UHGV virus genome: UHGV-1352914
Source of the DNA: a virus
Direction: 5' to 3' (one strand)
Length of the DNA stretch: 64,000 bases
Within the stretch, counting starts at the first letter, position 1. Every line of letters starts with the position of its first letter. The notes under the pieces were generated by a model, which saw only the letters and a list, made by a program, of their open reading frames with translations, did not search any database and was not told the DNA's origin. The position numbers and the translations under genes are program-made. This document shows, one piece after another, positions 13,107 through 54,584 of this stretch.

Positions 13107-13176
13107 ACCACTCCCGGCTCTGACGGGTTTATCCCGTAGCACCGCATTGCGGGTAAAAAAGGAGCACGTTCTATTC

Positions 13177-13213
13177 GGCCATCATAGTACACTATGGTGG
13201 CCGTCTTATTTTT
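13177..13213 (+). terminator. Hairpin (ggccatcatagt/actatggtggcc) + T-run
   Basis: 12-bp stem with 1 mismatch followed by gtcttattttt. Confidence 0.45.
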
Positions 13214-13218
13214 CCGAC

Positions 13219-13247
13219 TTGACTAGTAGGGGTTTATCCAGTATAGT
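13219..13247 (+). promoter_or_regulatory. sigma70-like promoter TTGACT-N17-TATAGT, -10 ends ~6 nt before the ATG (leaderless)
   Basis: Seen in sequence; ATG of next gene at 13253. Confidence 0.5.
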
Positions 13248-13252
13248 CTGTC

Positions 13253-16268: not shown

Positions 16269-16296
16269 TTGACAACGTCGTCCATTTGCGTATATT
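16269..16296 (+). promoter_or_regulatory. sigma70-like promoter TTGACA-N16-TATATT, leaderless geometry (ATG at 16303)
   Basis: Seen in sequence. Confidence 0.5.
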
Positions 16297-16302
16297 GAGG
16301 GC

Positions 16303-25783: not shown

Positions 25784-25802
25784 CCAATAATTAAACCTTG
25801 AC

Positions 25803-25851
25803 GGGGCTGAACTCATGAGCTAAACTTCTATGGGTTCAGCCCCAAATTTTT
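25803..25851 (+). terminator. Hairpin (ggggctgaac/gttcagcccc) + AAATTTTT
   Basis: Seen in sequence. Confidence 0.55.
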
Positions 25852-28379: not shown

Positions 28380-28439
28380 TAATCATGAGTTTACTCGAAC
28401 TTCTCGACCTACTTGGCTGGAAGCGCAAGTAGCACATTT

Positions 28440-28472
28440 CCCCGGAGGGGTTATCCTCCGGGGATTTTTATT
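28440..28472 (+). terminator. Intrinsic terminator (ccccggagg/cctccgggg + ATTTTTATT)
   Basis: Seen in sequence. Confidence 0.6.
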
Positions 28473-28483: not shown

Positions 28484-28511
28484 TTGACAAGTAATAAAAT
28501 TCTGATAAGGT
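28484..28511 (+). promoter_or_regulatory. sigma70-like promoter TTGACA-N16-(TG)n-TAAGGT
   Basis: Seen in sequence. Confidence 0.4.
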
Positions 28512-28517
28512 GGTGGC

Positions 28518-29144
28518 ATGTCAGAGACATCAAACACCAAACAGAAGGACGGCCATAATGTTATTATGGTCGATAAGCAGAATGGATTAACCCTCGTTCT
28601 GGCCAGCCATAGGGTTCGCATTCCCAACGAGGAAATTAAAGGAAGGGTTGAAGACCTTGCGGTTATCGAGAACCCGTGCACCGTTACGACGAACCTTCCG
28701 GCTAAGAACGAATTCAGTTTTCGTGATGAATCCGTAGAAACATCGGAAGCAGTTGAGAAGGCATTCGACGACGCATGCCTAGAAGAAAACCAACTGTTCT
28801 GCCCTATCTGTGGAGGCCTACTAAGAGAAGAACATCGCGGCAACTACGTGTTCGTAGAGTGCATGAGTTGCTCGCTGGCCGTGCAGGGGAGTGATGACGA
28901 TGACCCGGAGACAGCCTGTGAAGAGGCATGGAGAGAGGCTCGATTCTTCCTCGACAGTTGTCCTCCGGTTCTGCGTCTTCAACCCGGCGATAAGTTGCAT
29001 TTTATCGACAGGCCTCTTAAATATCAGTATTACGCCGTAGTTACGGACGTTGATGTGAAGGATAGCTGGATAAGGACCGACAAGGGTTCATGTCGCCCTG
29101 ACGACGTGCTTAAATGGCCGTGGGAAATTAAACAAGCAGAATAA
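28518..29144 (+). CDS. Zinc-ribbon protein with Lar-like (restriction-alleviation family) domain
   Basis: 'CPICGGLLREEHRGNYVFVECMSCSLAV...DDDDPETACEEAWREAR' matches Lar-family pattern CPxCGG...y.VxC..C...eA..W..R. Confidence 0.5.
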   Translation: MSETSNTKQKDGHNVIMVDKQNGLTLVLASHRVRIPNEEIKGRVEDLAVIENPCTVTTNLPAKNEFSFRDESVETSEAVEKAFDDACLEENQLFCPICGGLLREEHRGNYVFVECMSCSLAVQGSDDDDPETACEEAWREARFFLDSCPPVLRLQPGDKLHFIDRPLKYQYYAVVTDVDVKDSWIRTDKGSCRPDDVLKWPWEIKQAE

Positions 29145-29146
29145 CC

Positions 29147-29608
29147 ATGAACACGTTGCATCTATCTATCGCGCAATACTTCGCGCTTGCGGCTCTTTTC
29201 GTGCTTGCGGGCGTAGCTTTCCGCGCCTTGGGAGGGAGTGCCTCCACCGCAATGGCCAACAGGCTGAAAGCTCACTGGAAGCTCATTAGCATTGAGACCA
29301 ATAGCTACCGGACAAGAGGAAGCGAGTACACTCTATATGAGCGCAATGAAATGAATGATATGTACAACCGCCTCTTTGATGCCGCTACCCTGTGGATTAT
29401 TGTTGGACTAGTCGGACTGACGGTAAGTATTATTGTTGAGTGCCTCTTCACGCTTCCCGCGCCTCCGCTCTATGTCCTCTCCCTCCTCACTGCATGGATT
29501 GCCGCATGGTATCTCTTTGTGGTCATAGCTTACTACATAAGCATGGCGGTGATTATGCAGATGACCCAATATAACCTCTATCGTCAATACCCAAAAATTA
29601 AATTCTAA
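29147..29608 (+). CDS. Membrane protein (3 TM helices)
   Basis: Hydrophobic segments at residues ~10-30, 70-95, 100-130. Confidence 0.5.
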   Translation: MNTLHLSIAQYFALAALFVLAGVAFRALGGSASTAMANRLKAHWKLISIETNSYRTRGSEYTLYERNEMNDMYNRLFDAATLWIIVGLVGLTVSIIVECLFTLPAPPLYVLSLLTAWIAAWYLFVVIAYYISMAVIMQMTQYNLYRQYPKIKF

Positions 29609-30018
29609 TGAAGAAGTACGAAGTAAAACTTGGAATGATTGTCCGCGTCAATCATGGTCCCTGTGGCCGCGTCGTGGAAATCGACAACGAACGGGCTACC
29701 TACCCGTACAAGGTACGCTATTCGGGAGAATTAGTGGAGTGGGCCTCCGCTGACCAGATGGAAGAAGTGTTAGATGCACCGGAGGAATCTGTCCGTGCCG
29801 TTTGCAATAACACCACTAAACCTCGGCAACCATTCAAGAGAGGCGATAGGGTACAATACGTTCCTCGTGGCTGGGTAAGCTACGAAGAAGAACCTATCCC
29901 CTTTCAGGAGTACGCGGTTTACAACGATGAAGACAACGACGGCTGGGTATGTATTGACGGAGTGACCACCAGCTACTTCAACAGTGTTAAGTACTTTGAC
30001 CTTAAACTAATCGACTAG
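29608..30018 (+). CDS. Hypothetical protein (two small beta-barrel-like repeats)
   Basis: 136 aa; repeated 'G..V.....G.G.V.EID' pattern. Confidence 0.45.
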   Translation: MKKYEVKLGMIVRVNHGPCGRVVEIDNERATYPYKVRYSGELVEWASADQMEEVLDAPEESVRAVCNNTTKPRQPFKRGDRVQYVPRGWVSYEEEPIPFQEYAVYNDEDNDGWVCIDGVTTSYFNSVKYFDLKLID

Positions 30019-30020
30019 CC

Positions 30021-30137
30021 ATGAGCACAACTCTATTTATTAGTATCTCGGACATCATCGCATGGGCGGCTATTGTTCTGTGCGTACTCGTCCTTCTCGC
30101 CCTGTGGGCCGTTGAAACCATCAATAAAAAAAATTAA
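30021..30137 (+). CDS. Small hydrophobic peptide (38 aa)
   Basis: ATG 30021 to TAA 30135-30137; single TM; below ORF-track cutoff. Confidence 0.25.
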   Translation: MSTTLFISISDIIAWAAIVLCVLVLLALWAVETINKKN

Positions 30138-30141
30138 AAAA

Positions 30142-31191
30142 ATGAAAGCCGAAGATTTAGGTTGTCCTTTCTGCAAACACCATAACCTCCCGGAATCCAC
30201 GGAACCCTGTGCATCCTGTGACATGTATTTCAGTAACTATGAACCAATGGATACCGTGGATACCGTGGATACCGTGGATACCGTGGATACCGGGTTTCAC
30301 CGGAGTTGCTCCCACTGCATCTACCGTAAAACCCCGCTGACGCAATTCCCCTGCATGAAATGTGCCGTCACTCCCGGACTTCCCTGCTACGCCACGGATT
30401 ACCCGTGGGTAGAAGAGGAAAAGGAAGGTGAGCAGTTGCCGGAATCCATGACCCCTTGTACGAGTTGCAAGCACGCGAAAGAGGCCAAGGAAGGAGAGCA
30501 GTTGCCGGAATCCGTGGATGAACCCGTAAGCTATGTTCTCCCCTCCTGTGATGATTGCAGGTATTTGACGAGACGGCTGGAAGAGGAACCCTGCCTCTCC
30601 TGCTACAAAGCTTCGAACTTCACTATCATCAAGGAACCCGTGGATGGCACGGATGAGAATGATGATGTCATTGAACCTTGCAATAGTTGTGTCCATAGGG
30701 ATAACCTCCGTTGCAATCCTCCATGCTCTCATTGCCGACAGGAGCGGGGAATTGAGTACCCGGAATATGAAGAGGATGAGCAGGGAATAGATTGCCCGGA
30801 ATATGAAGAGGCTGAACCGGGAATAGATTGCCCAGAATATGAAGAGGATGAACCGGGAATAGATTGCCCGGAATATGAGGACAAGGCTTCTGGGTACAAA
30901 GGAATCGTGCCAAAGCATATTACCGATATGTTTATTGAACGAATGAGGGAAAATGTACTACGGCTCGCCGACGAATATAACTCCTGCCCCCGCCCCCGTT
31001 ACTGCCCGTATTGTGGAGAAGTGCCGGAGGTCGTAGAGGAAACCATCTACCCCGGAGAAAAGCATTGCTACGTTGTCTGCAATGGAGCCAATCTCCTTCC
31101 TCATAGCATCAGCGTTCATGGCAGGAGCCGGGAAGAAGCGGTCGCCAACTGGAATAGCTTCGCCTTATCTCTGGCCAATAAAGGAAAATGA
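30142..31191 (+). CDS. Cys-rich multi-zinc-ribbon protein with C-terminal Lar-like domain and internal tandem repeats
   Basis: ORF-track start 30073 is non-ATG; ATG 30142 (MKAEDLGCPFC). >=7 CxxC pairs; (DTV)4; 3x 'IDCPEYEE[DA]EPG'; C-terminus 'CPYCGEVPEV...HCYVVCNGANL...SREEAVANWNSFA' Lar-like. Confidence 0.5.
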   Translation: MKAEDLGCPFCKHHNLPESTEPCASCDMYFSNYEPMDTVDTVDTVDTVDTGFHRSCSHCIYRKTPLTQFPCMKCAVTPGLPCYATDYPWVEEEKEGEQLPESMTPCTSCKHAKEAKEGEQLPESVDEPVSYVLPSCDDCRYLTRRLEEEPCLSCYKASNFTIIKEPVDGTDENDDVIEPCNSCVHRDNLRCNPPCSHCRQERGIEYPEYEEDEQGIDCPEYEEAEPGIDCPEYEEDEPGIDCPEYEDKASGYKGIVPKHITDMFIERMRENVLRLADEYNSCPRPRYCPYCGEVPEVVEETIYPGEKHCYVVCNGANLLPHSISVHGRSREEAVANWNSFALSLANKGK

Positions 31192-31292
31192 GCAACCACT
31201 GGATAACCATTAGCGGGGGAGGATTCGTCCTCCCCATTAACTCCATTCTAGTCATGGATGAAGAACTCGCCGCATAACTTACAATCAAAGAC

Positions 31293-31382
31293 ATGTACAC
31301 ATTAACTGGATTCCTTCTCGGCCTTTTATTCTACTACCTCGTCGAGAACAACGATAACGACAACGACCCTATCCCTGCATGA
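31293..31382 (+). CDS. Small hydrophobic peptide (29 aa), stop overlaps next ATG (ATGA)
   Basis: MYTLTGFLLGLLFYYLVENNDNDNDPIPA; coupling geometry supports reality. Confidence 0.3.
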   Translation: MYTLTGFLLGLLFYYLVENNDNDNDPIPA

Positions 31383-31855
31383 AAATAAATAGAAGAGGAC
31401 TAATCGTTCATCCCGGCCTGAAGCATCCGAGACGGCCTCGGCATAGTACTCCCCCGGTAAAGAACATCCCGAAGGGCTACATTGCCACCGGGGAGATTGC
31501 CAATAAAATCGGACGCAGTTCCGTATGGGTAATCCACGCCCTGAACCGATTGAAGGTTGAACACGTGCGTTGCGGGCATACCATCTATTGGGAAGGGAAA
31601 GGAGCCGAGGAATATATCGGCACACAAGTGCGGGGATTATATGACAGTATCCCGGAGGGGTATGTTGATGTAGCCACCGCATTGGAGACTACGGGCTTGA
31701 AGTCGCCGGGATACCTAACTACCCTGTTTAAGCGGGGCAAAGTTCAGCGTGTGCGGTATCGTGATGAAAGCGACCCCCGTGGCCGTAGGACACGATTCGC
31801 GTACAAACTGGTTGACTTGTTGTCCCATTTAGGATTAAATGGGGAAGTCCTATGA
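31379..31855 (+). CDS. DNA-binding protein with two HTH (MerR/excisionase-like) repeats
   Basis: 'YIATGEIANKIGRSSVWVIHAL' and 'YVDVATALETTGLKSPGYLTTLFKRGKV'. Confidence 0.45.
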   Translation: MKINRRGLIVHPGLKHPRRPRHSTPPVKNIPKGYIATGEIANKIGRSSVWVIHALNRLKVEHVRCGHTIYWEGKGAEEYIGTQVRGLYDSIPEGYVDVATALETTGLKSPGYLTTLFKRGKVQRVRYRDESDPRGRRTRFAYKLVDLLSHLGLNGEVL

Positions 31856-32205
31856 GAACCACGTATTCTACAACTAGAACCGTACAGAAGGGCCAGAGCA
31901 ATCAACAGGCATTGCTCGGTCTCCTTCTGAACATTGACCTCCTTGACTCCTCCCTTACCGCGGATGGCGTCCGTGTCCTTCTGTACATGCACGCCAACGG
32001 ATTTGAGAAGGAGTACGACAGTCCCTCAATTAGCGAGGGAACTCGCATCCATATATCTTCTCTTTACTACGTCCTGCGCAAGCTGGAAGAGAAAGAATAT
32101 ATCACGTATTCCGGGGTTAGGGGTTCGAGGAAACAAAGCAAGAGCCAATTAACCTCGAAGGGTATCACCTTCTGCCGGGACGTCTTCCGGCCACAAACAA
32201 TCTAA
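31852..32205 (+). CDS. Winged-helix (MarR/PadR-like) transcription regulator
   Basis: 'LLGLLLN...LTADGVRVLLYMHANG...ISSLYYVLRKLEEKEYI'. Confidence 0.45.
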   Translation: MRTTYSTTRTVQKGQSNQQALLGLLLNIDLLDSSLTADGVRVLLYMHANGFEKEYDSPSISEGTRIHISSLYYVLRKLEEKEYITYSGVRGSRKQSKSQLTSKGITFCRDVFRPQTI

Positions 32206-32213
32206 TCAACAGC

Positions 32214-32648
32214 ATGGAAACAAATAATCTCAATGAACAGACGGAAGTCGCGGTCAAGCTCTACAACATGGCCGAACTTTCCACCCCGTGGGACCAGCTC
32301 ACGGCTGACAAGAAGAAGCCCTACATGAATATGGCGGGCAAACTAATCAAGGGAGAGGCTGACATTTTTGCCCAGCTGACGGCGAAGTACTGTGTCCAGC
32401 TTGGCGTACCTAGCAAGTACAAGACCATCATCTCCGGGATTATCAGTGCCGCCCTTGGTGCTTTAGCTATGTTTGGAGCGTTGGGGCAGAGCAGTTGTAC
32501 CTACGCGGATGTGAGTAAGGACCGCGCAGTTATCTGCAATGGCGATGGTTGTGTAATCGTTAGCCCCGGAAGGTTGACGTTTACGCAGGAACAACCTAAG
32601 AGCGAAGTTGCTCCCGTCGTTATCCCCAGCAAGGAATTCTGCAAATAG
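32214..32648 (+). CDS. Hypothetical protein with one TM segment
   Basis: 'IISGIISAALGALAMFGALG'. Confidence 0.45.
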   Translation: METNNLNEQTEVAVKLYNMAELSTPWDQLTADKKKPYMNMAGKLIKGEADIFAQLTAKYCVQLGVPSKYKTIISGIISAALGALAMFGALGQSSCTYADVSKDRAVICNGDGCVIVSPGRLTFTQEQPKSEVAPVVIPSKEFCK

Positions 32649-32650
32649 CT

Positions 32651-33211
32651 ATGGCTCAAGAGTACAGTGAGATTCCACAAGCTCCTGACCTCTTTAATCA
32701 TCCCGTACCCTCGGTTCCCGTGGGTACGGAGATGCTTAATGAGGCCCCGCCGTTTGATTCAATGCCGGACCCGATTGCCCCGGTTTATGGAGAGAGCGAC
32801 ATCGGGGTGTTCCATACCCCTGTGTATAATGACGACCCCCTCATGCGCAACCGGGAAGAGAGCATGTTCTCCGTCGTGTATGACCCCACGGATTCCGGAC
32901 CTAACGCGGCGGTCATGTTTGTGGCTGGGGTTATTGTATCTGGAAGCGCAGTTTTTAACATAGGTGGTGCTCCCGGAAATTTACACCCCGTAGCCAGCGG
33001 AGAAAGGGCACCCCTTGATGATGATATTATATGGTATCTTAACGTCAATAGAGATGATTATGGTCTGTCTATGGTAAGTAGTGTGCCATCGCCGGATGCC
33101 TTCTTTTCTCTTCCCGTAGCTCGAACTCGAAAAGGAACCAACGGGTACATTCAGCAATTACACAGAGGGGCCGTATTCATTGGTTCTGAATTTGTCTTTG
33201 GTCCTGCTTAA
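32651..33211 (+). CDS. Hypothetical protein
   Basis: 186-aa ORF. Confidence 0.45.
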   Translation: MAQEYSEIPQAPDLFNHPVPSVPVGTEMLNEAPPFDSMPDPIAPVYGESDIGVFHTPVYNDDPLMRNREESMFSVVYDPTDSGPNAAVMFVAGVIVSGSAVFNIGGAPGNLHPVASGERAPLDDDIIWYLNVNRDDYGLSMVSSVPSPDAFFSLPVARTRKGTNGYIQQLHRGAVFIGSEFVFGPA

Positions 33212-33223
33212 CCTCCCAAACCC

Positions 33224-33976
33224 ATGACCTACATCTATATATTCACTTACAGAAGAGACCAGCCAGATGCGCTGGAATGTGTACGTTGCACGAGAAAAAC
33301 TCTCCCCCATGCAGTTATTACTGTAGTCGACGATGGAAATTCCCCATGTACGGAAGGCGCAGAAACCCAGTTCCTACAGGCTGGAGCCACACATTATGAG
33401 CAAAGCCAATTTAATCGAAGGGGAAATCTTAACGGTCCCGAATGTGTGCGAGGCATCCTCTCCTACCTAGCACAAAAGGCCGAAGACGAAGACATTGTGA
33501 TAAAGCTAGATTCCGATACTTGTCTCCTTTCTACTGACTGGATTGAAGACATGCTAGCGCAGGGGAAGAGCATGGCTGGATGTAGCTCACGCTATACTAC
33601 ATGGAAGAACATTTACTATATACACGGAACATGTTATGCCATGACGGGGAAGCTGGCAAAGCAAGCATTTCAGAAATCTTTGTCTTGGACAGATTGGTCA
33701 GAAACGGCTCCGGAAGATTTAGAGATATATCGACTGGCTTCCACTATCGTGGGAGAGGAAAACATTCTTAAAGAGTTCCCTTGGACGCCATCGACCCCTT
33801 CGGCAAGATGGACGGCATGGAACTGGGTGAGCTTCACCGTAACTCCGGAAAAGTATAAACACTTTTCGGTGGTCACCTTCGGTATGTTTATGCCCTCCTA
33901 CAAGCCGAGAAGCCTTAGGGCATTAGCCATGAAGGAGTTACGTGAATGTGTCTATCCTTCTGACAATTCAATGTAG
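33224..33976 (+). CDS. Glycosyltransferase family 2-like protein
   Basis: N-terminal 'IYIFTYRR...L..C...VITVVDDGNS' and DxD 'IKLDSDT'. Confidence 0.55.
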   Translation: MTYIYIFTYRRDQPDALECVRCTRKTLPHAVITVVDDGNSPCTEGAETQFLQAGATHYEQSQFNRRGNLNGPECVRGILSYLAQKAEDEDIVIKLDSDTCLLSTDWIEDMLAQGKSMAGCSSRYTTWKNIYYIHGTCYAMTGKLAKQAFQKSLSWTDWSETAPEDLEIYRLASTIVGEENILKEFPWTPSTPSARWTAWNWVSFTVTPEKYKHFSVVTFGMFMPSYKPRSLRALAMKELRECVYPSDNSM

Positions 33977-34026
33977 CAGGACAACTGGCTTATCGATTCC
34001 GTACATCGAAATGTCAGGACGTTAAA

Positions 34027-34083
34027 TCCCACGGAACCCACGGAACCCACGGCCAAATGGCCACAATGGGTTCCGTGGGTTCC
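34027..34083. repeat. Intergenic palindromic array: (CCCACGGAAC)x2.5 ... 17-nt spacer ... GGGTTCCGTGGGTTCCC
   Basis: Seen in sequence; ~50 nt upstream of promoter at 34137. Confidence 0.65.
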
Positions 34084-34136
34084 CTTGTGTCTCGCCCACA
34101 GGCGTGTGCGGCTGTGTCATACCAGTTAAAAATTTC

Positions 34137-34164
34137 TTGACCAGAAGCTTTTCCTGTGTATGAT
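34137..34164 (+). promoter_or_regulatory. sigma70-like promoter TTGACC-N16-TATGAT, leaderless geometry (ATG at 34172)
   Basis: Seen in sequence; ORF-track start 34160 lies inside the -10 hexamer. Confidence 0.55.
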
Positions 34165-34171
34165 AGCGGGC

Positions 34172-34837
34172 ATGGACAACAACTTCCATTATATTATTAG
34201 CGCGTATAACCCTTCCCTCCATTGGCCGGAGAGGGAATCAAACCTAATCCACTACACGGTCAATTATCTTAAATCCCTGAACATTTCCGGCGAGAACGTT
34301 ACCGTCATGTCCGAGGACCTCGGCGTTCTCTCATGGGCCAGAGCGGAGGGGCTGAACGTGGCCCGTGTCCCTGACGCGCCTGACGAGGCTATCCTCTCCA
34401 TCGCCGCAGAGCATGCGGGAAAGAATATCATGGTGCTCGACACCCAATGCCCGGTACGCGAAGCGGACCTCCTTGACGTTATGGCCAGCCAAATTGTCAC
34501 CGAGAAGGATGTCATCTTCATCTCTGCCTACATGGGATTGAAGCGGACGAACGTCGAAGACTACCCAGAATGGACTGGCATCGTTGATGGTAGCGTGTGG
34601 GGGTTCCGGCACGATAGCGACCTTAAGGTCATTAAGAGGATGTGCAATACCTACCTCGTCTATCATGACGCGTTCGCTGGTCACTTCGGGGTGAGCCTCG
34701 ATTACCAGTACGATAAAGATGTACTGGACGTCGCCGTGAAACGCGGCTGGGAAAAGAACGCGAGCACCGCCCCCTGTTCTGCGGATTATCCCCGGCGCGT
34801 ACAAGTTATGGTTGACAAACCTAAACAAAATGTCTAA
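34172..34837 (+). CDS. Hypothetical protein (possibly nucleotidyl-/glycosyl-transferase-like)
   Basis: Start moved to ATG 34172 (MDNNFHY); alpha/beta composition; adjacent to GT2 gene. Confidence 0.4.
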   Translation: MDNNFHYIISAYNPSLHWPERESNLIHYTVNYLKSLNISGENVTVMSEDLGVLSWARAEGLNVARVPDAPDEAILSIAAEHAGKNIMVLDTQCPVREADLLDVMASQIVTEKDVIFISAYMGLKRTNVEDYPEWTGIVDGSVWGFRHDSDLKVIKRMCNTYLVYHDAFAGHFGVSLDYQYDKDVLDVAVKRGWEKNASTAPCSADYPRRVQVMVDKPKQNV

Positions 34838-34851
34838 GCTTTATTCACCAC

Positions 34852-35304
34852 ATGAACACAAATCAATTGTATTTTGACGGGAGCCTTGGTCAGTTCATTC
34901 GCAAGGCTCGATATGAACAGGTAAGCGTAGATGCCTCATTGGAAGTCCAGCATGGAATATCCTCACTTGTCCTCCAGTTTGGCGCAGGATTTAAGGGAGA
35001 CCTCCGATTTAATATCTCCCATGCCTCTGCCCTTCTTGGCAACGTCTCCACGTCAAGCCCCTTTACATGGAAGTTTCAGTTAGCCCAGCTCAATGCCGGG
35101 GGAATACCTGTATGGAAGACGGTCGCGTCTGGCATGACGGCCCCGGAGAAACCCGGAGGCACTGCCGATACCGTTATCCTCCCCACCGACTTCTTTGAAT
35201 TAGACCCTGCCGAATATCCTGCCGGGACCTACTGGATGACTGTTGAGTTCTCTGATACAGTTGACTGGACCCGCACCTTCCCCCTCACACTTCAAATTAT
35301 CTAG
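34852..35304 (+). CDS. Hypothetical beta-rich protein
   Basis: 150 aa. Confidence 0.45.
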   Translation: MNTNQLYFDGSLGQFIRKARYEQVSVDASLEVQHGISSLVLQFGAGFKGDLRFNISHASALLGNVSTSSPFTWKFQLAQLNAGGIPVWKTVASGMTAPEKPGGTADTVILPTDFFELDPAEYPAGTYWMTVEFSDTVDWTRTFPLTLQII

Positions 35305-35306
35305 CC

Positions 35307-35681
35307 ATGAAATTGGATTTATCCCACATCCTGCAACTCTACCCCGTCCTGAAAATCCTTCATTACCAGACAAGGGAGGGATTCCACCATGAACGGTATG
35401 ACGACGCAGTAGAAGAATTGGGCGGCATTGCCGACAGTTTCATTGAAACCTATCTCGGACTACATGGCCGCGACTGGACGGCGAAGCCCGTGTTGGTGCG
35501 CCCCGTAATGCCAGATACTACTGCCGCGTGCATTGGCTTGTACGAAACCGTCATCCTGCGGGACCTCGTTCCCTACCTCTACACCGTTGCCGGGAATGAA
35601 CCCACGCTAAGGAAACTGGCAGAAGACTTTGAGCAGAGTGCTCGAAAGATTTACGGACTACTGAACAATTACAGCAACTAG
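35307..35681 (+). CDS. Hypothetical protein
   Basis: 124 aa. Confidence 0.45.
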   Translation: MKLDLSHILQLYPVLKILHYQTREGFHHERYDDAVEELGGIADSFIETYLGLHGRDWTAKPVLVRPVMPDTTAACIGLYETVILRDLVPYLYTVAGNEPTLRKLAEDFEQSARKIYGLLNNYSN

Positions 35682-37898: not shown

Positions 37899-38319
37899 GA
37901 CCAGATTTAAGTGCGGCGACGTTGTTCTTCGGATAGATACGGGGAGATGTGGCATGTGTGGGGATAGCATCCCAACAGGGTCTATCCTTCGGGTAGTGTC
38001 CGACGAGGATGTTGCTGGTGTCGTTCGTGTCCAATATCCCCAAGCGGATGATGAAGACGAAGAGATACAGGATGTTATGTGGTACGAAATCGACCACTTA
38101 CCCGCGAAAGCCAAGGTAGAAGAATTCTCGGATGCCGTGAGGGTGTCCATGAATGGGGACGCTATTGCCACCATTCTCACGGACATTGCCACCCCATTGG
38201 GCACTCTTCACTTCGAAAGCTGGGCCAGAGAAATTGCCCAGTCGATGGCGAACATTATTAACCTTCAAATCTCATTGGGGAAGCTAACCTCGGACGGAAT
38301 CAAAGTAGAAAAAAACTAA
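37873..38319 (+). CDS. Hypothetical protein
   Basis: 148 aa; 'G..VV.RID.GRCGMCG'. Confidence 0.45.
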   Translation: MKVGPGKVKTRFKCGDVVLRIDTGRCGMCGDSIPTGSILRVVSDEDVAGVVRVQYPQADDEDEEIQDVMWYEIDHLPAKAKVEEFSDAVRVSMNGDAIATILTDIATPLGTLHFESWAREIAQSMANIINLQISLGKLTSDGIKVEKN

Positions 38320-39083
38320 TGACAAGCAAAAACAAAATTAAGGAAATACAGAAGTGGGCGGGAACTACGCCCGACGGTATCCTTGGTGATAAGACCATTG
38401 ATGCTATATGGAAGAAGATACAACCGGAACCCACGGTTTCCGTGGGACCTATGGACGTCCCGGAAACCACGGGTTCCGTGGGTCCCGTGGAATCCCCGGC
38501 AGAGATTATCCGCAAAGGAATGGCCAAGAAGATTCTCAACATGGAGGACTACAAGATTACAGGTCCCGATTCTCTGCGCGTAACTCGCCTCCCCTCTGGT
38601 GACGGCGGTGGCAAGTGGGAGATTGCAGGTATCTGTGATGGGATTGAACCCAAGGAATTCAATCTAATCAAATCCATGATGGACCGGGGCGACAGGGATG
38701 CGGCATGGGAGGAATGCCTCCGCTATGTTCTCGCCAATACGGAACCGTTGGTTGCCAAGGGAGTTGCAGGATGCTACGCCATTGAGTTCATGCTTCGCGA
38801 CATGACCTTCAACATGGGTGTGGCGGGAACGACTAAGGTTGTCCAGCGCATGCTCGACATTGATATTGACGGCAAGTGGGGGAAAAATACCCAAGCCAAA
38901 TGGACGGACGCCATTCAATCATGGGAGGAAAGCGAAGTCCTCGATATGCTGGACCGCGCTTGTCGTGCCCGCTATTGCTCCATTGTAAGAGCCAATCCGG
39001 TGAAGGCGAAGTTTCTCTCCGGCTGGTCCAACCGATGCAATGCGCGACATGCTTACGCTCTTACTCTGTTGTCAAGGAAATAA
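38319..39083 (+). CDS. Endolysin-like protein with peptidoglycan-binding repeats
   Basis: 'WAGTTPDGILGDKTIDAIWK' and 'IDGKWGKNTQAKW' PG_binding-like repeats; linker 38420-38500 carries CCACGG palindromes. Confidence 0.5.
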   Translation: MTSKNKIKEIQKWAGTTPDGILGDKTIDAIWKKIQPEPTVSVGPMDVPETTGSVGPVESPAEIIRKGMAKKILNMEDYKITGPDSLRVTRLPSGDGGGKWEIAGICDGIEPKEFNLIKSMMDRGDRDAAWEECLRYVLANTEPLVAKGVAGCYAIEFMLRDMTFNMGVAGTTKVVQRMLDIDIDGKWGKNTQAKWTDAIQSWEESEVLDMLDRACRARYCSIVRANPVKAKFLSGWSNRCNARHAYALTLLSRK

Positions 39084-39096
39084 ACAGGGAATTTTC

Positions 39097-39125
39097 TTGA
39101 CCCGTTAAACCCCAAATGATAACAT
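39097..39125 (+). promoter_or_regulatory. sigma70-like promoter TTGACC-N17-TAACAT followed by 14-bp palindrome that includes the ATG
   Basis: Seen in sequence; palindrome aacatggcggcaagg/ccctgccgccatgtt 39121-39155. Confidence 0.5.
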
Positions 39126-39150
39126 GGCGGCAAGGTAATTCCCTGCCGCC

Positions 39151-39573
39151 ATGTTTAGATTCGTCGCACAGCTAAACACCATTGACGGTAACGTATGGAC
39201 TTTGTTTCTCACCCGTATCGTCGAGGAAATGTCTCCCGCATATCTCGTATTTGTGGGAGTTATTTACGTGGCAGTAAAGCTGGCGTATAAGTATCTCTCA
39301 AAAAAGATAGAGTTTAGTCTTGACAAGGAGAAGTCATTTCTCATACTATTGCAAGAGGCTCTAAGAGTTATATCCGAGTTGGATGAATCTCTAGACCAAT
39401 TACATGGAAAAATAGACAACCTACGAAGCGACCATGAAGAGATAATCGACCGCGCCTTCTGCGCTATCTCGCAACAAGATACACACCCCTCCGACAGAAA
39501 TGAAAATATTCAATCTGTTCCGAAAAAGCCACGAGCAGGAACAACTCGAAAACGAGTTGACCCAGAATCTTAA
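39151..39573 (+). CDS. TM + coiled-coil protein (holin/spanin-like)
   Basis: TM segment 'AYLVFVGVIYVAVKLAYKYL' then helical charged region; downstream of endolysin. Confidence 0.4.
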   Translation: MFRFVAQLNTIDGNVWTLFLTRIVEEMSPAYLVFVGVIYVAVKLAYKYLSKKIEFSLDKEKSFLILLQEALRVISELDESLDQLHGKIDNLRSDHEEIIDRAFCAISQQDTHPSDRNENIQSVPKKPRAGTTRKRVDPES

Positions 39574-43637: not shown

Positions 43638-44765
43638 ATGCCGACCAAAAAGACTGACATATCGAGTGAGACGAGCGCGAGCGGGGGTATCCCCGCCGCC
43701 AAGTCTCTCAAACAGAAGACGATGGACGAGGTGCTTCCGAAGTCGAATCCCAACATCCCTCTCCGTCCCATGAATAACAACGACCCGAACAAGCCTGTCG
43801 ACGCGAAGGAGATGAACACCATCGCCGCGGCCAATAGCAACCACGGGATTAAGAATCCTCCCGCCAGTCCCTACGGGCGGGGGATTACGGAACCAGCAGT
43901 GCCGGGCGCAGTTGACCCTAATAGCGCAAGCTACGCCGCGCGGCAACAAGCGGCATACCAAGCTGGCATGCAACAAGCCGCGGCGGGGAAACTCTCTGCC
44001 GAGGATAGGCTCATGCTTCGGGGAGTTGACCAGAATGTGAGCAGGGGAATGATGCCCACCATTTCTCCTGCGGCATCCACGGTTCCCATGGCAACCGGAC
44101 GTCCCACGGCATCCACGGGAACGACGGCATCCACGGGAACGACGGCATCCACGGGAACGACGGAAGCGGCTCAAAAATATCTGCAAGATAAACTTGGTCC
44201 GGAAGGGTACAAGGTATTCCAGTCTATGCCGAAGGAACAGCAGGAAGCCATATATAGCAAGTACGCCGAGATGGTGACCAAGAATGCGCCAGCCGCTACC
44301 ACGGCGGCATTACCGAAAGGTTCTGCTCCGTCTCCCTCCGCAAACGCACTGCCCTCTGGCAATACTCCCATTCCCACGAGAAGTTCAACCACAAGTGCGC
44401 CCGCCGTGGATACTTCCAACAGTTCCGGTGGCGGGACTGCCGAGTACATGCTTCGAACCCTACAAGATAACACGGCCAGCCCGGAAGCTAGAGCACAGGC
44501 AGGAACATACCTCAAGGTCCGAACCATGTACGCCCAGCCGGAAAAGTATAGCAAGGAAATTAAACTCCTTGAAAAGCTGGAACGGGCTAAAAAAGAGGAA
44601 CTGCGCAACATGTTCAGGAATCGGCTCAACATCCGAGACCCCCGCTTTGCGCGGCAGTACGCGCAGTATCAAGCCCTACAGAAGAAAGACCCGCAAGCAA
44701 GGCTCGCGCTATATTCCGAACTGATGCAAGGTCCGGAGTTCGCCCATTTGGAATTCCGAAAATAA
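43638..44765 (+). CDS. Low-complexity A/Q/P-rich protein with (ASTGTT)3 repeat
   Basis: 375 aa; likely internal/ejection or assembly protein. Confidence 0.45.
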   Translation: MPTKKTDISSETSASGGIPAAKSLKQKTMDEVLPKSNPNIPLRPMNNNDPNKPVDAKEMNTIAAANSNHGIKNPPASPYGRGITEPAVPGAVDPNSASYAARQQAAYQAGMQQAAAGKLSAEDRLMLRGVDQNVSRGMMPTISPAASTVPMATGRPTASTGTTASTGTTASTGTTEAAQKYLQDKLGPEGYKVFQSMPKEQQEAIYSKYAEMVTKNAPAATTAALPKGSAPSPSANALPSGNTPIPTRSSTTSAPAVDTSNSSGGGTAEYMLRTLQDNTASPEARAQAGTYLKVRTMYAQPEKYSKEIKLLEKLERAKKEELRNMFRNRLNIRDPRFARQYAQYQALQKKDPQARLALYSELMQGPEFAHLEFRK

Positions 44766-44788
44766 ATTTGTCATAGTTGATATTTCAC

Positions 44789-44816
44789 TTGACCCTCGCC
44801 CCACTCATGATAGGAT
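44789..44816 (+). promoter_or_regulatory. sigma70-like promoter TTGACC-N16-TAGGAT nested in inverted repeat CCCCACTCATG...CATGAGTGGGG (44798-44842)
   Basis: Seen in sequence. Confidence 0.45.
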
Positions 44817-44868
44817 GTTGAAGACCCACATGAGTGGGGCAAACTTATTAGACTAACACTCAACAAAC

Positions 44869-47800
44869 ATGGCTATCGACTTTAGTACCGCCAATATGTC
44901 CGACTTCGCTCCGACGTCGGCAAGCAGTATCGCGCGTGAACAGCGAGCCGCAGAACGGCACGCCACGTGGCAAGAGACGCAAAAACAGAAACAGGAAGAC
45001 AGAGCACAGAAAGCACTGGACCGCGAGCAAAGGTTAGCGGAAAAGAAACAGACCCGCGCGGAGAAAGCCGCAGGAGCTACCGCGGAGTTTGATGACTATG
45101 TCTTTAAGTCCATTGATGACTTTCAGAAGAAACAGACTGAACAGGCAGACCGCGCACGTAACGTAGAATGGGAAACAAAAAGCCGCGCCCATACGGAACA
45201 AGGATGGAAAACCACCGCGGAAAAGGCTGACATTGATGTCTTGAACAAAGGAAACCGTGGGTTCACCTTTGAGGGAATCGACTACATGAAGGACTATGTA
45301 GACCGCGGAGAAGATGCGCTGGTTGATTTGAAGGCCGCCGCTCGTGGTGATAGTGACGCCATTAAAAAGCTTACGAATAACACGGGCATCGTCGCAGTCT
45401 CTTCCTCCGAACTTTCTCCCCAGCATCCCGCATTCTTATCCCGCTTTGGCTTCGGCATGGGAGAGGACGGGAACCCCGTCGTAACGGAAAAGTTCCTCGC
45501 CATTGCCGCAGACAGAAACCGTAACGCAAAGGCGGTGGCCAAATCCATCGCCAACACAATGGAGAAGGCCCGGAAGGATTACCTCAACTCGCATCTAGAT
45601 GTTGGTACAGGTAAACCTAAAGCAGAAGCCATCGAGACTGCACCCATTGCTTACACTGCGGAGGAAATAGAAAGCATCATCAATACGATTAGGCGCGAAG
45701 ACATTGACAACTATCGTGCCGCTAAGTCTCTCTATACTAAGCACCGAGCCGCTTCGACGGAGAACGTGCAGAAGAAAACCCCCAGCCAGACGAACGTGGG
45801 GGAGCTTGGCGTTGGCGAATTCTCTGATTCAGCACCTTCATTTACTGGGAATGTTTTTGCTGAACTCGCCAACCTCTCTAAGTCTCCCAGCAAAATGTTC
45901 CGGCTTGTCCGCGACTACGGGGATTACCTTTCCCGGAACGGTGATATCTATATCCCCGGGCATCAAACTTCAAAGAAAGAAAAACCTGTTGAGGATAGGA
46001 TTCGTGAACAGATAGAGGCGGCAGACAAAATCGTAAGACGGCTCGAAGAAGACTACACTGGCCTTCCCTACCTCGAACTTCGCGACGCGATTCTCAATCC
46101 GGAAGCCGCGGCCTCTACCCTTCTGTCTTTAGTCCCCAATGCTGACATGGACGCAATACGTGCAAGGGCCGAAGTTCTTGCCAAGGACCTTCGTCGCAAG
46201 AAGGACCGCCCCCTGACCTTCGAGACCGATGAACAGATTGGCATGAGTGAGGCTATACTGGAAGCCGTGGCTACAAGGTTTCCGGGGGTTCCCAAATCCA
46301 CCCTGTACCAAGCGGGAGTAACCAATCTGATTCAGGGTTATGTCGCCAAGGCTACGCCGAGAGGCACTCTCATGGATGCGGTCAATGGTGCAATGGCTAA
46401 CTACCGAAGCACGGCGGGACAAATTGCGGATGTGCTTACCTTCCAACCGGGAGATAGTGTGGGCAAGACCTCTGACCCATTGAGTACGATGGAATGGAGA
46501 AAGGGAACGAGGCGTGGCACATGGGAGTATGGCGTACCGGGGGGTCCCTCTTTTGATGTAGGTCCCGAACGGTTGAAGGAATACATGGCCCAGTACCATA
46601 TCGAAAGTACCCGCGACGCTCTCAACTCCCTCTCCCATGCCGCACGTATGGGTGACTTGGGCGTAGGCCGTGGCAGTCTCTTTGCGTACAATCCGCACAC
46701 CAAGGAAGTAGATACGAATGCCACTCTCGAACTGAACCCCAATGCTCTCTACGACAATAAGCTGATGGACAAGAGCATTGAGGCTCTCCGTGCTAGTGGC
46801 GCGGACGAAGGTCTCATCAATCGCACCATTGAGAAGTTCCAGAACCTCCGCACGAAATCCGCACAGGAACTTGTGAAGGACAACATTGCATTGGATGAAA
46901 CGCTGGGAACGCTCCGTGATACGTGGCTTGGTTCCGGTATGCGGTTCAACCCTGTCTGGACCGAAACCATGAAGCATCTGGACAAGTACCTTTCCTTCAA
47001 GAATTTTTACAACGAACAGAAGGAAGCGGGCAAGAGCGACGAGGACATTCTCTCCGCATGGCAGGAGAAAGGACAGGCTCACATCAATCCTATTCTCCGT
47101 GGGTTCCAGATAGGCACGCACAAGGCCATTGACCTTGGGACAGGGGCCGCCTATGGTGCTCTTCTCTTTGCGCAGAATGCAGTCGGCAGTCGTGCGGCGA
47201 TGGAACATACCCGCACCCTCTGGGACCAGCTGAACAAAAAACAGGAAGCGGAAGCTGAACTTGTTCGAGGCAATATCATTGCAGACTATACTGCGGAAAT
47301 CGCTAACCTCGGCTACCAAATGGTAGCAACCGCGGGGGCTGGTAAAATCGGTGGCCTTGCTGGCCGTGCATTGGAACGTACCGCTCTGACCAAGTTCGCG
47401 AGGGCAATGGCTAACGTCGCGGCGAGGCGGGCAGAAGCTCTTGTCCCTGCCGCCCGTCCGGGATTGGCGGGACGTTTGAGTGGAACTATTCAGCGCAACC
47501 TCAACAACCTTGCGGCGTTGAGCCTCGAACGGGCAGGAGCTGGTGCTGGGGTAAACCTTACCATCATCTCGCAGGTTGCACCGAATGCTTACTCCGACAT
47601 CTTCTATACCATTTATGACAGGGAGATGGAAGGGAAGGAAGCGACTGCCGAGAACACGAACCGGGCACAGAGCATTGCCAGCAGGCATGCCCTCTTTGGT
47701 GCGGCTCTGGTCTCCACTGGCAGTACGCTTATCAACAACCGCGCAGGTATGGATTCCTTCATGCGTAAGGTTGTTGGGGCTAAAAACCTTCGCGGCCAAT

Positions 47801-50800
47801 CTCCAGTCCAAACTCTTGAACAGAAGATGGCCAGATGGAGAAGCAAGCCGTGGGCTGAAATGAATACCAAGGAGAAGACGTTTGCCGTTGCTTCCTATTT
47901 GTACAGCACGAGCATGGCCGCAGTGGAAGGAGCCACCGAAGAACTGGCAGACGAATTCCAAGAGTGGGCATTTACTGAACTGGTGAAGAACGGAGAAATC
48001 TCCGAATCCTCTATTGCCACTACTGACCAAGTGATTAGCGGTGCTATAAAGACTGCTTTCCTTGGGGGTATCGGCGGCTACGTTGGTAGCCAGTTAGCTG
48101 GTGAAGGGAACATACGTTTCCAAACCGAAGCCGCTCCCACCCTTGATGTAAAGGATGCTACTTCCATACTACCGGATATTACGAAAGATGCGAGCAACAT
48201 CATCGAGGAAACGGGCAAAGCCATTACCAAGGATAATGTACCGGAAAGCTTGGTAGAAACCGGAAAGAGGGTTATCGAGATTGCCGGGGAGAAGGGGGAT
48301 GCCGCGGAAGTTGCCCGCGAATGGGTGGACAAATCCATTGCCCATGAAAGTCTGGCAGTCTCCGATGAAACCCGCAAGGCATGGGTGGAAGGCGCAACCC
48401 GTATGGGCATCAGCAATTTCACCCAGTTCCGCAACCTAGTTGAACGGGCCTCCGAAATATATACCTACGAGGGTAGTGCCGCGGCAAGCTCATTCATGGC
48501 AGAAGCCATTAACGACCTGCCCAATACCCTGTCATTCCCAAATAAGGAAAACCTCGACACCATGCGCACCATGCTTTCGGAGGCCCTTGATGCTATGGGA
48601 GACAGGGTTCAGGTTATCGAAGTAGACGACGACCTGTCCATCATTACTACAGGGGACGAGGACCTCGATGCCGCTCTTCACGTCATTAACGGATTGACGG
48701 AACCCACGGCTACCACGGAACCCAAGGAATCCCCGACTACCGCGGAACCCACGGCTACCGCGGAACCCACGGCTACCGCGGAACTCACGGCGCGGAAGGA
48801 GAGGGACCAAGCCATTGCCCCCGTCACTAACATGGTAGATACGGGAGTAGTTACCCCCGAAGCCGTGGAAACCGTGGATACCTTGGATGCCGCCATTACT
48901 TCGTTCGACCCCAACACTGGGGCATGGCTTTCATCCGGTTCACCTCTTGACCGCGGAACCAAGCTCGTCTCCTTGAACGAGATGACCGGGATTAACGCCC
49001 CGCTGGTTACGAGCAACACGGGAGAAACCATTGTCGTCTCTCCGCACGCAAGCATGTACAACATGGGTGAGGGAGGGACACCCAGCACCAAGTGGGGGGA
49101 TAGGGTCTCCGCTCTCAATCTCCCCTCTGACGGGACGGGCGTAAATGCCTACGGCATCCTTTCGGACCTTCGCGTCAAGGCATCTCCTGCACAGGCCGCG
49201 GCCATTGACGGAGTGCTCCGCGCATTGCATGCCGCTGGTTTGGACGTGGCTATCCGAGCCACCAATGCTCCTGCCAATATAGCCTCCCCCGCCAGTATCA
49301 CGTATAAGAACGGAACAGACGGGAAGCTCGTCGGCGGCGTCATTGACCTGTACATGGACCGGGACAATGTGATTGAGAGCGTAACGGGAACAGTACTGCA
49401 TGAGGCCATCCACCTCATTGACCGTCATCTTCGTGCCACTAACGCGGACTACTCCCAGCGGATGGACAAGATTAGAAGCGCAGTTGCGGAGAACTATAAT
49501 CAAATCATTGATAGCCTCACTGCTATGTATGAAGCTAGCGTGGACATCAATGAGATGAATGCCATCGCCGCGCTTGCCTCCGACCTCAACTATGGTCTCC
49601 GTGGCCCGGACGAATTTGCCAGTGTTGCGTTCTCCAATCCTGTCATGAACTTCATGATTGCGGAGGTGAGCGGAGACAATGTAACCCTCACGGATTTGGC
49701 TCGCTATGCCGAAGCGGCTGGGGGCAGGAGACCCGTTCATGTGCGCCTCATTGAATGGCTTAAGGATTTGATTAGGGATGTGCGGCAAACTGCGGACGAC
49801 ATGGATGGAACCACCGCCGCCAAGAATGCGGCTGAATGGGATTCCTATGTGGACCGCGTCGCGGACATAACCCCCGGCAAGTGGTTCGACATGCCTCGCA
49901 CTCCGTCATGGAAAGTAGACGATACGGACTACACCATGAGCCGTGAGGTAGATTATTTTAACCCGTTGGCCTATGAGACCGACATGACCCAAAGACTGTC
50001 CTTCGGTCTGGGCGCAGAGATTATCGGTACGAATGCCGGGAACTGGGTAACCAGTGTTAAGAACGTATGGCAAGGCGTGTCTAAGGGCTGGGACAAAGCT
50101 GGCATCAATGTTAAGTCCGAGGAACAGAAGCTGATTGTGCTGGAACAAATGACCAACGTGAATGCGGCGTATGAACGCAGTATTAAACGCATTGGCAAAA
50201 TCGGCGATATGCTTCAACGCCGTGCGGATAGTCTGGGCTGGGATGCCACGACGCGAAAGAAATGGAGCAAATCCATTCTCGATATGTCGGGGAATATGGA
50301 CAACGATATTGACCCTGAAACTGTTGCACGCATTAACGCAGAGGCCCAAGCAGAAGTTCGCCAGCACGAACAGACCCGCGACTTCCGTATCGCGTTGGCT
50401 AAGAAGACCGTTACCGATGCCGTCAATAGGCACGCGGAAGCGGTGCGTCTGGCCAACTCCCTTGCGCTTAATAGTGAAGGGCGATTGGAAATCAATGAGA
50501 TGATGCGCCGGATTAAAGACATGAGCGTCAAGGGATATGGTGCTATGCTGGACAAGACGGTGGCTCTCCCCATGCTCTCCCAGCAGATTCACAATGTGCT
50601 CTCTGACCTTGGCTCTCGTATCTCCGCGACGGGGGATGCCAATCTGGAAACCACCTACTTTGGCCTCGCCCGTGATACGCAGAACTACCTTGCGGATATG
50701 ATTAACGAGGTGGACAGTCCCTTCTCTATGGATGAACTTCTGGACAGGTGGTCCAACCTTCGCAACGACTACCTCTATGCGGAGAGTACAAACCACCCCG

Positions 50801-54534: not shown

Positions 54535-54549
54535 CAAGGATTTATATCC

Positions 54550-54578
54550 TTGACCTTCGGGGGCATGGGAGATATACT
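54550..54578 (+). promoter_or_regulatory. sigma70-like promoter TTGACC-N17-TATACT flanked by inverted repeat gggcatgggaga/tctcctatgccc; leaderless geometry (ATG 54585)
   Basis: Seen in sequence. Confidence 0.5.
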
Positions 54579-54584
54579 TCTCCT

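Follow-up and report, generated by a model that had tools for sequence, protein, structure and literature searches.

The DNA analysed here, a stretch of 64,000 nucleotides referred to as the window, represents most of the genome of a ~70-kb phage whose relatives derive from human-gut metagenomes. The element under study is intergenic, lying between an upstream ORFan and a downstream ORF that are encoded on the same strand. The features of the locus, all on the plus strand, are:

33224-33976, upstream ORFan of 250 aa in a variable gene slot, with its TAG stop codon at 33974-33976 (from the ORF list)
34028-34052, left array with a 9-nt period, two full units of CCCACGGAA (34028-34045) plus a partial CCCACGG; 2 or 3 copies in relatives
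34033-34049, 5' arm of a perfect 17-bp stem, GGAACCCACGGAACCCA (repeat search and fold)
34051-34062, inner mini stem-loop GGCC-AAAT-GGCC within the 17-nt loop (predicted in both the MFE and centroid structures)
34067-34083, 3' arm of the stem, TGGGTTCCGTGGGTTCC, with inverted units; 1 or 2 units in relatives, one in contig L108
34084-34096, U/G-rich and A-free tail past the stem, CTTGTGTCTCGCC, without a U-run
34097-34123, a 27-nt unit, CACAGGCGTGTGCGGCTGTGTCATACC, here in one degenerate copy; relatives have from none to three or more in tandem
34124-34136, A/T-rich stretch immediately 5' of the -35 hexamer, AGTTAAAAATTTC, kept in relatives
34137-34164, sigma-70-like promoter TTGACC-16-TATGAT, kept in all relatives
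34172-34837, downstream ORF of 221 aa from the ATG at 34172, which lies 7 nt past the -10 hexamer

Elsewhere in the window, the following genes were located:

3317-6208, primase-helicase
7767-9686, DNA polymerase
13772-15607, large terminase (TerL)
38319-39083, peptidoglycan-binding, endolysin-like gene (PG_binding_1/PG_binding_3) with a linker at 38425-38490
44869-54534, ORF of 3221 aa with no PHROG or Pfam match
57745-59742, minus strand, NAD-dependent ligase

The locus had been described by a sequence-only reading as a palindromic array at 34027-34083. The two strings quoted there are indeed present on the plus strand, CCCACGGAACCCACGGAACCCACGG at 34028-34052 and GGGTTCCGTGGGTTCCC at 34068-34084, and the actual element occupies 34028-34084, one base further to the right. 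The start-to-start spacing of the units is exactly 9 bp and not the 10 bp assumed, so that successive units do not lie on one helical face. A spacer of 17 nt is found between the maximal complementary arms, whereas the segmentation of the sequence-only reading itself leaves 15 nt. A repeat search revealed a perfect inverted repeat of 17/17 between 34033-34049 and 34067-34083, which makes the palindrome at 34033-34083 the longest perfect inverted repeat of the 64-kb window; by our own estimate, about 1e-4 such repeats would be expected by chance. The existence of the palindrome is confirmed; it is conserved and highly non-random. The 17-mer of the hairpin arm occurs within the window at this locus only. 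An exact 17-mer scan of the genomes of 185,579 species yielded more than 120 scattered matches, mostly in high-G+C bacteria, and no plus/minus pair with the geometry of the element. In addition, no nucleotide match was found among the 50,697 phage records of INPHARED, using megablast for 33000-35500 and blastn for the intergenic region.

The upstream ORF 33224-33976 had been called GT2-like. We found no Pfam, PHROG or PDB-sequence match to support this assignment, and homologues were confined to hypothetical proteins from Akkermansia phages, with tblastn matches of 40-46%. Based on these matches, Akkermansia is probably the host of the phage. A literature search on Akkermansia N4-like or Schitoviridae phages returned nothing relevant. 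The downstream ORF 34172-34837 gave no tblastn match to known phage DNA, and it likewise has no match in Pfam, PHROG or PDB sequences. The upstream slot is occupied by non-homologous ORFs of 270/273 aa in other close relatives and by an ORF of 171 aa in a distant clade. The joints of these hybrid arrangements map to the vicinity of the stop codon and to the left border of the hairpin. Hairpin and promoter are retained while the gene in the slot differs and is non-homologous.

The promoter noted at 34137 was confirmed as a promoter-like site, TTGACC-16-TATGAT at 34137-34164. It belongs to a family with the pattern CTTGAC-N16-18-TANNNT, which has 16 sites in the window compared to 1.2 expected, mostly intergenic and on the coding strand, and A/T-rich stretches similar to 34124-34136 also precede other promoters of the family. 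The extended pattern TTGAC-N16-18-TANNNT-N4-8-ATG occurs six times compared to 0.35 expected, including 34137-34174. From this excess, the downstream gene most likely starts at the ATG at 34172 on a leaderless mRNA. The homology of the downstream protein to its 44% identical relative starts at residue 3, and the alternative ATG listed at 34160 falls inside the -10 hexamer. The order of hairpin then promoter is also found elsewhere in the genome, at 13176-13205, with a T-run, before the promoter at 13219 and at 28439-28464, with a T-run, before the promoter at 28484; in addition, a hairpin at 25803-25843 overlaps the promoter at 25797. A minus-strand ORF of 66 aa (34022-34222) spans the element and was considered as a coding alternative. 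It was rejected, since the tails of the relatives differ by 1-nt indels (15 versus 16 nt) and the unit numbers also differ, leaving no conserved frame.

The secondary suggestion of the sequence-only reading, a possible RNA hairpin, is supported by folding. The RNA of 34020-34100 is predicted to fold with -43.2 kcal/mol (z = -6.1; 0 of 200 shuffles as good) into a 17-bp stem with an inner stem-loop, and the corresponding DNA fold has -24.1 kcal/mol (z = -5.7). When all 15 plus-strand intergenic gaps of at least 45 nt were folded, 34033-34083 gave the most stable hairpin. As expected for a Rho-independent terminator, it is a stable, G+C-rich hairpin on the transcribed strand, located 51 nt past the TAG at 33974-33976. 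However, an uninterrupted U-tract of ~4-8 U is absent 3' of the stem: the tail is CTTGTGTCTC in the window (also given as CUUGUGUCUC) and UUCGUUGUGU in most relatives, with 50-60% U and a longest T run of 2-3 throughout. The clear terminators of the same genome, at 28439-28470, 13176-13216, 55681-55718 and 1620-1675, have runs of 4-5 T, and its other terminators have 11-13-bp stems with 4-7-nt loops. The 17-bp stem with a 17-nt loop is outside the usual terminator range, and a simple terminator scan makes no call here. Because the tail has no U-run, we do not file the element as a canonical intrinsic terminator, but propose that it only works like one. In Rfam, no match was found at the gathering threshold in the whole window, and at E <= 1 the matches were generic miRNA-precursor or hairpin families far below the threshold.

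Conservation in related phages had been named as a check on the element, and this check turned out in its favour. In a close-relative set of ~50 human-gut phage contigs, the hairpin is present in all complete relatives with the promoter: 31 of 31 promoter-carrying IMG/VR contigs, 24 of the 24 complete metagenome contigs (26 found) and further ENA/Logan contigs. All variants are predicted to fold, with energies of -21 to -43 kcal/mol, even though their sequences differ. The left arm has 2 or 3 units and the right arm 1 or 2, the stem of L108 being shortened to 8 bp. The loop carries GGCC, GGTC or GGAC and AAAT, AAAC or TAAT. The inner stem is GGCC/GGTC (with a G.U pair) in most relatives, weakened to GGCC/GGAC in the L083 clade and rebuilt as GCCA-CCTA-TGGC in L082. 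The latter contig, with 79% protein identity, has C-to-T changes in its left arm that keep the pairing as G.U on the plus strand. One uncompensated stem mismatch each (A.C or C.U) was found in the L083 clade, L112 and L103. The tail also varies, being TTCGTTGTGT, TCTTTGTGT or TCTCCGTTGTGT, and L093 and L094 have a tandem of three CCTTCGTTGTG copies (an 11-nt unit). The close clade consists of 12 distinct variants at 90% identity, and MAFFT misaligns L082; individual folds were compared in place of covariation counts.

The distance between hairpin and promoter is not constant among these contigs. Between the two lies a 27-nt unit, CACTAGCGTGTGCGGTTGTGTCATACC, whose copy number ranges from 0 to at least 3, and the gap to the -35 hexamer is 28-30, 53, 56, 83 nt or more as a result of this 27-nt VNTR and of 1-nt indels. 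The placement of the hairpin 50 bp from the promoter, as originally described, is close to the value in the window, where 53 nt separate it from the -35 hexamer, but does not hold for the close relatives, where the distance ranges from 29 to >83 nt. A step of 27 nt corresponds to ~2.6 helical turns, and the 1-nt indels also occur among near-identical relatives, so a fixed promoter distance that preserves the helical phase is not observed.

A profile search revealed eight more distant contigs, in which the downstream protein is 44-45% identical. In three of them (L273, L279 and L280), the 5' flank GGATTTCGTACATTGAAATGTCAGAGCGTTTA is homologous to window positions 33995-34026, and the exact position of the array is taken by GATTGCGAGAATATAC-loop-GTATATTCTCGCAATC followed by ATTTTATGG. 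The hairpin of this clade has a stem of 16-17 bp, GATTGCG(A/G)GAATATAC...GTATATTC(T/C)CGCAATC, followed by (A/G)TTTTATG; its sequence is unrelated to the CCACGG array of the window. Downstream of it, the order is TTGACA-17-TATGAT, 6 nt and ATG, which matches the promoter and the leaderless start of the window. Three other contigs (L274, L277 and L278) share this hairpin except for one compensatory pair (G-C versus A-T), followed by GTTTTATG, next to a different upstream gene. The loop was found in both orientations, indicating recombination between the arms. In the remaining two contigs, L275 and L276, the hairpin is precisely deleted, which indicates that its function is dispensable. Judged by its stem, its TTTT and its position, the orthologous hairpin of this clade has the features of a textbook intrinsic terminator. 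At the orthologous site the structure is thus conserved and the sequence is not. Such conservation of position and structure with replacement of the sequence is what would be predicted for a structural RNA signal, and not for a sequence-specific binding array.

Based on the folding and the two sets of relatives, we propose, with a probability of about 0.6, that the element is the terminator or attenuator stem-loop of a composite terminator-promoter junction, built from 9-nt repeats at the edge of a variable gene slot. In the proposed mechanism, the host RNA polymerase would transcribe the upstream unit from the promoter at 28484 to the end of the ORFan at 33976 and go on to copy the inverted 9-nt units. 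In the RNA, these units would fold into a very stable structure with a 17-bp stem and an inner 4-bp stem, and the hairpin together with the U/G-rich tail would terminate or strongly attenuate transcription and protect the 3' end. The sigma-70-like promoter, a separate element located 29-83 nt further downstream in the different relatives, would then start a new transcript at or beside the next ATG, and this transcription unit from 34137 would reach the endolysin-like gene 38319-39083. We infer that the hairpin terminates despite having no clean U-run, and that blocking read-through matters, since a leaderless ATG buried in a read-through transcript would not be translated. The variable distance between hairpin and promoter fits two independent modules. 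The strongest point for the terminator reading is the comparative one, namely the unrelated hairpin at the orthologous site. Similar to intrinsic terminators, the element has a G+C-rich hairpin past the stop codon on the coding strand and a U-rich tail, but it differs from them in having no uninterrupted U-run and in the 17-bp stem and the 17-nt loop with a second small stem.

A comparable arrangement is known from T4-like phages, in which composite terminator/promoter cassettes termed PeSLs (promoter-early stem-loops) flank ORFans (Arbiol et al. 2010, PMC2839356; Comeau et al. 2014, PMC4122927). The stem-loop of these cassettes was shown experimentally to terminate or attenuate transcription (PMC2839356, PMC4122927), and their parts are ordered as stem-loop, A/T-rich stretch, sigma-70-like promoter and start codon (PMC2839356). 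The same order is found here in the intergenic region, with the stop codon, the stem-loop 34033-34083, the A/T-rich stretch 34124-34136, the promoter 34137-34164 and the ATG at 34172. Similar to PeSLs, the element is located between ORFans in a variable region, at the joints of non-homologous gene swaps. However, PeSLs are conserved over ~100 bp and repeated many times, providing homology for recombination, whereas here recurrence is limited to the promoter (16 sites), and other junctions have unrelated stem-loops. In addition, the start codon here is probably a leaderless ATG instead of one with a Shine-Dalgarno sequence, and the stem is made from a 9-nt repeat. PeSLs belong to T4-like myoviruses, whereas the present phage is an unrelated ~70-kb gut phage whose host is probably Akkermansia. 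We regard the element, by analogy, as a PeSL analogue and not as a member of that family.

The 9-nt repeat itself is not confined to the hairpin. No hexamer is more over-represented in the window than CCACGG/CCGTGG (104 compared to ~35 expected), and its same-orientation copies are spaced by 9, 18, 27, 36 nt and so on. All relatives, those of the distant clade included, show a 3-5 fold enrichment, compared to only 1.7 fold, without periodicity, in Chantilly, a temperate Akkermansia phage. Non-coding arrays of related units that form poor hairpins are present in the distant clade (L025 1657-1768, L015 2842-2991 and L037 1026-1067). Coding linkers contain the 9-nt units as well; there they are in frame, and several frames as well as both orientations occur. 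In the linker at 38425-38490, the number of units, the spacer and the orientation differ between near-identical genomes. These comparisons point to a lineage-wide, hypervariable 9-nt CCRYGG+N3 repeat family as the material from which the hairpin arms are built. Since the arms are made of this abundant repeat, the array-like look of the element is explained without a binding protein.

The repeats could nevertheless be a DNA-level array for a phage or host protein that binds the CCACGG/CCGTGG core every 9 bp in both arms and acts as an operator, a roadblock or an iteron- or centromere-like site. The phased activator or operator array favoured by the sequence-only reading is not supported, because the period is 9 bp, the distance shifts by 27-nt steps and 1-nt indels, the unit number is variable and an unrelated hairpin stands at the site in the 44-45% clade. 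A DNA-level array would account for the hexamer excess, its spacing in multiples of 9 nt, its 3-5 fold enrichment in all relatives compared to 1.7 fold in the temperate Akkermansia phage, and the non-coding arrays without good hairpins in L025, L015 and L037. The substitution pattern also speaks for it: the 3-4 independent substitutions inside full units are all located in the 3-nt spacers, leaving the CCACGG cores invariant. The chance probability of this pattern is ~0.02-0.04, estimated post hoc from 3-4 events, and the pattern may indicate that the sequence is constrained instead of the pairing. However, no cognate protein was identified, the ORFs near the element having weak wHTH or DUF matches. 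The variation of unit number (2-3 left, 1-2 right) and of promoter distance loses the helical phase, and the 9-bp period is itself off one helical face. Furthermore, the orthologous site of the 44-45% clade has a canonical terminator without such units, and the units within coding linkers, in several frames and both orientations, are more like a mutational or recombinational repeat family. We consider a binding array unlikely on balance, and it keeps what probability it has because of the 9-nt repeat family.

Known arrays of this kind are bound by ribbon-helix-helix proteins, as in the 7-bp heptads of the omega repressor of pSM19035, the 8-bp metboxes of MetJ and the iterons of ParR. Like these, the element consists of short head-to-tail units without spacers, both direct and inverted, upstream of a promoter. 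It differs from them in that the unit number and the promoter distance are not conserved and there is no known binding protein; in addition, the array is missing at the distant orthologous site and the units also occur inside coding regions.

Another reading takes the repeat family as the primary object. The hairpin may be one site of a lineage-specific, DNA-level cassette system with a 9-nt unit (a CCRYGG core plus 3 nt), in which units multiply, invert and swap in place, driven by a phage protein that recognises or nicks the core or by template switching during replication. The conservation of the core alone would then reflect this system, instead of or besides termination. We regard this, too, as rather doubtful. 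The proposed cassette sites are found in regulatory DNA and in the in-frame linkers of ORF 38319-39083, ORF 30073-31191 and the 3221-aa ORF. Among better known repeats, REP/BIME elements of enterobacteria have units of ~35 nt and are restricted to the extragenic DNA of bacterial chromosomes. Similar to them, the present units are short, palindromic and genome-wide, are often found past stop codons and can form hairpins at mRNA 3' ends. The unit here is instead of 9 nt, arranged in tandem arrays in a phage and often in frame within genes.

Since both flanking genes are on the same strand, the hairpin might act after transcription, as an RNA processing or stability element: its ~22-bp interrupted helix would be an RNase III-type site, or a protective 3' hairpin, in a read-through polycistron. 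The length of the helix (17 bp and 4 bp with an internal loop), which exceeds that of the other terminators of the genome, and the tail without a U-run agree with this. Yet the distant orthologous hairpin has the U-tract of an intrinsic terminator, the variant with the 8-bp stem in L108 would not be an RNase III substrate, and the downstream gene, with its own promoter and apparently leaderless, does not need the processing of a read-through RNA. The probability that processing is the function of the element is small.

It is also quite improbable that the element has no dedicated function, being a by-product of unstable 9-nt repeats or a recombination joint that intramolecular conversion keeps in place at the edge of a swappable slot. 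The copy-number variation around the element (9-nt units, the 27-nt unit with 0 to at least 3 copies and the 11-nt unit repeated three times) would be expected in this case, as would the exchange of the upstream gene for non-homologous ones, the joints being at the hairpin or close to it. The two orientations of the distant-clade loop and the precise deletion in two contigs are further signs of recombination at the DNA level. On the other hand, all complete contigs of the close clade keep a stable hairpin while the flanks, the loop and the tail vary, and an independent hairpin is found at the same spot in the distant clade, both of which are difficult to account for unless a hairpin is selected at this position.

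A replication origin or cruciform, with inverted initiator-binding iterons beside an A/T-rich stretch, is very improbable: direct and inverted short repeats do lie near the A/T-rich stretch 34124-34136 and the phage encodes a primase-helicase (3317-6208), but this stretch has only ~13 nt and forms the upstream part of a promoter family, its distance to the repeats is variable, and a better candidate is found at 2095-2258, where an A/T-rich palindrome is followed by a degenerate 9-mer array. Cruciform extrusion is disfavoured for inverted repeats with a 17-nt spacer, so it would be unlikely here. As for DnaA boxes, the units of some arrays, GTTTCCACG, loosely resemble TTWTNCACA, but canonical boxes are not enriched (4 compared to 3.8 expected). 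Two other candidates were rejected. A hairpin promoter for an N4-type virion RNA polymerase has a 5-7-bp stem with a 3-nt loop, compared to 17 bp and 17 nt here, and the promoters of this phage are sigma-70-like; the 3221-aa ORF (44869-54534) was considered as such a polymerase and has no PHROG or Pfam match. The target of a protelomerase, or of another enzyme acting on a perfect palindrome, does not fit the 17-nt non-palindromic centre.

Taken as a terminator-promoter junction, the element would mark the boundary between two transcription units, 28484-33976 and the one from 34137, in the annotation of an uncultured ~70-kb human-gut phage. An unrelated lineage of gut phages would then possess an analogue of the composite terminator-promoter cassettes that border swappable ORFans in T4-like phages. 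The more unusual finding, compared to the modest interest of the hairpin element, is the repeat family: the same 9-nt repeat builds both the hairpin and in-frame protein linkers, and is hypervariable between near-identical genomes. If a dedicated mechanism lies behind it, the 9-nt family would provide phages with a new route to rapid diversification.

The site of the palindromic hairpin at 34033-34083 varies among relatives. In the distant clade, whose downstream protein is 44-45% identical, the loop of the unrelated terminator hairpin at the orthologous site was found in both orientations (ATTTTCT/AGAAAAT and ATTTTCC/GGAAAAT; contigs L273-L280, 5' of position 1501 in every contig). Two of these contigs, L275 and L276, have lost the hairpin precisely, between short AATGA direct repeats. 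Judging from these sequences, loop inversion and AATGA-bounded deletion show recombination at the DNA level at the palindrome of this clade. The stretch from the hairpin to the promoter holds a 27-nt unit, CACTAGCGTGTGCGGTTGTGTCATACC, whose tandem copy number ranges across relatives from 0 to at least 3, and an 11-nt unit, CCTTCGTTGTG, is present three times in the same interval of L093 and L094. This variation was noted from the window copy at 34097-34123 and from L004, L058, L065, L093, L094 and L100. The hairpin-promoter intergenic region is a tandem-duplication hotspot.

The repeat unit common to the whole lineage is 9 nt long, consisting of a CCRYGG core and 3 further nucleotides. CCACGG/CCGTGG is the top over-represented hexamer window-wide, with 104 occurrences versus about 35 expected and a spacing periodic at 9 nt. 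Arrays of these units were found both in non-coding DNA and in frame within coding linkers, the latter in various reading frames and in both orientations.

9-nt CCRYGG repeat arrays in the window and in relatives' contigs
Window 2226-2258
Window 30254-30286
Window 38425-38490, linker joining PG_binding_1 and PG_binding_3 domains
Window 44113-44160
Window 48699-48790
Window 62084-62101
L015 2842-2991
L025 1657-1768 and 4135-4167
L037 1026-1067

Near-identical genomes have different unit numbers and orientations in the arrays at 38425-38490 and 30254-30286. At 48699-48790, in-frame TAEPTA-type 18-nt repeats lie inside a 3221-aa ORF (44869-54534) that gave zero Pfam or PHROG matches. CCATGG is nearly missing from the window (1 site in 64 kb versus about 16 expected), and is also depleted about 5-fold in the temperate Akkermansia phage Chantilly (L095). 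The scarcity suggests that CCATGG is avoided because a host restriction system targets it, which fits an Akkermansia host.

The left end of the window carries about 2.4 kb of non-coding DNA. At 300-720 and 760-1470 this region contains about 10 copies of an ATTCCG[GT][GT]G-type motif, spaced about 25-60 nt apart and many preceded by ATACCG, together with a direct repeat of about 90 nt (~905-1000 and ~1385-1470) and two copies of GTCAAGCAAAATCGACACGGGGCC (768-791 and 859-882). The region could serve packaging, origin or early-control functions. Two mini transcription units lie back to back at 1555-1675 and 1688-1800, each with a strong sigma-70-like promoter (TTGACT-17-TAGTAT and TTGACA-17-TATAGT) and, about 40-50 nt past it, a nearly identical terminator hairpin, CC..GGAGGTAGGCTYGTCCTGCTTCCGG plus a T-run. 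As neither contains an obvious ORF, we consider them small-RNA candidates; Rfam returned no match for either. Just before the replication genes lie an imperfect palindrome of extreme A/T richness (2095-2158) and, after it, a degenerate array of 9-mers, CCGAACCCC CCGGAACCC CCGGATTCC ACGGATTAA (2226-2258); L013 and L045 have cleaner arrays at the equivalent position. The segment 2095-2258 is a better replication-origin candidate than the 34-kb element.

Several promoters are enclosed by inverted repeats, with the left arm in the -35/-10 spacer, the right arm over the transcript start and the -10 in the loop, except at 39096-39155, where the -10 sits in the left arm.

Promoters within inverted repeats, window
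25797-25843, stem 25803-25843 followed by AAATTTTT
39096-39155
44788-44840
54549-54592

In this arrangement an upstream terminator and the promoter that follows it may overlap compactly. In the CTTGAC-N16-18-TANNNT promoter family of the window, ATG follows the -10 by only 4-8 nt at six sites versus 0.35 expected. Such sites include the following.

Promoters with a near ATG, window
13219-13255
16269-16305
28484-28520
34137-34174
54550-54587

A promoter with ATG shortly after the -10 is also kept in the distant clade. The recurrence of this spacing at several promoters implies that a subset of this phage's genes would have leaderless mRNAs.
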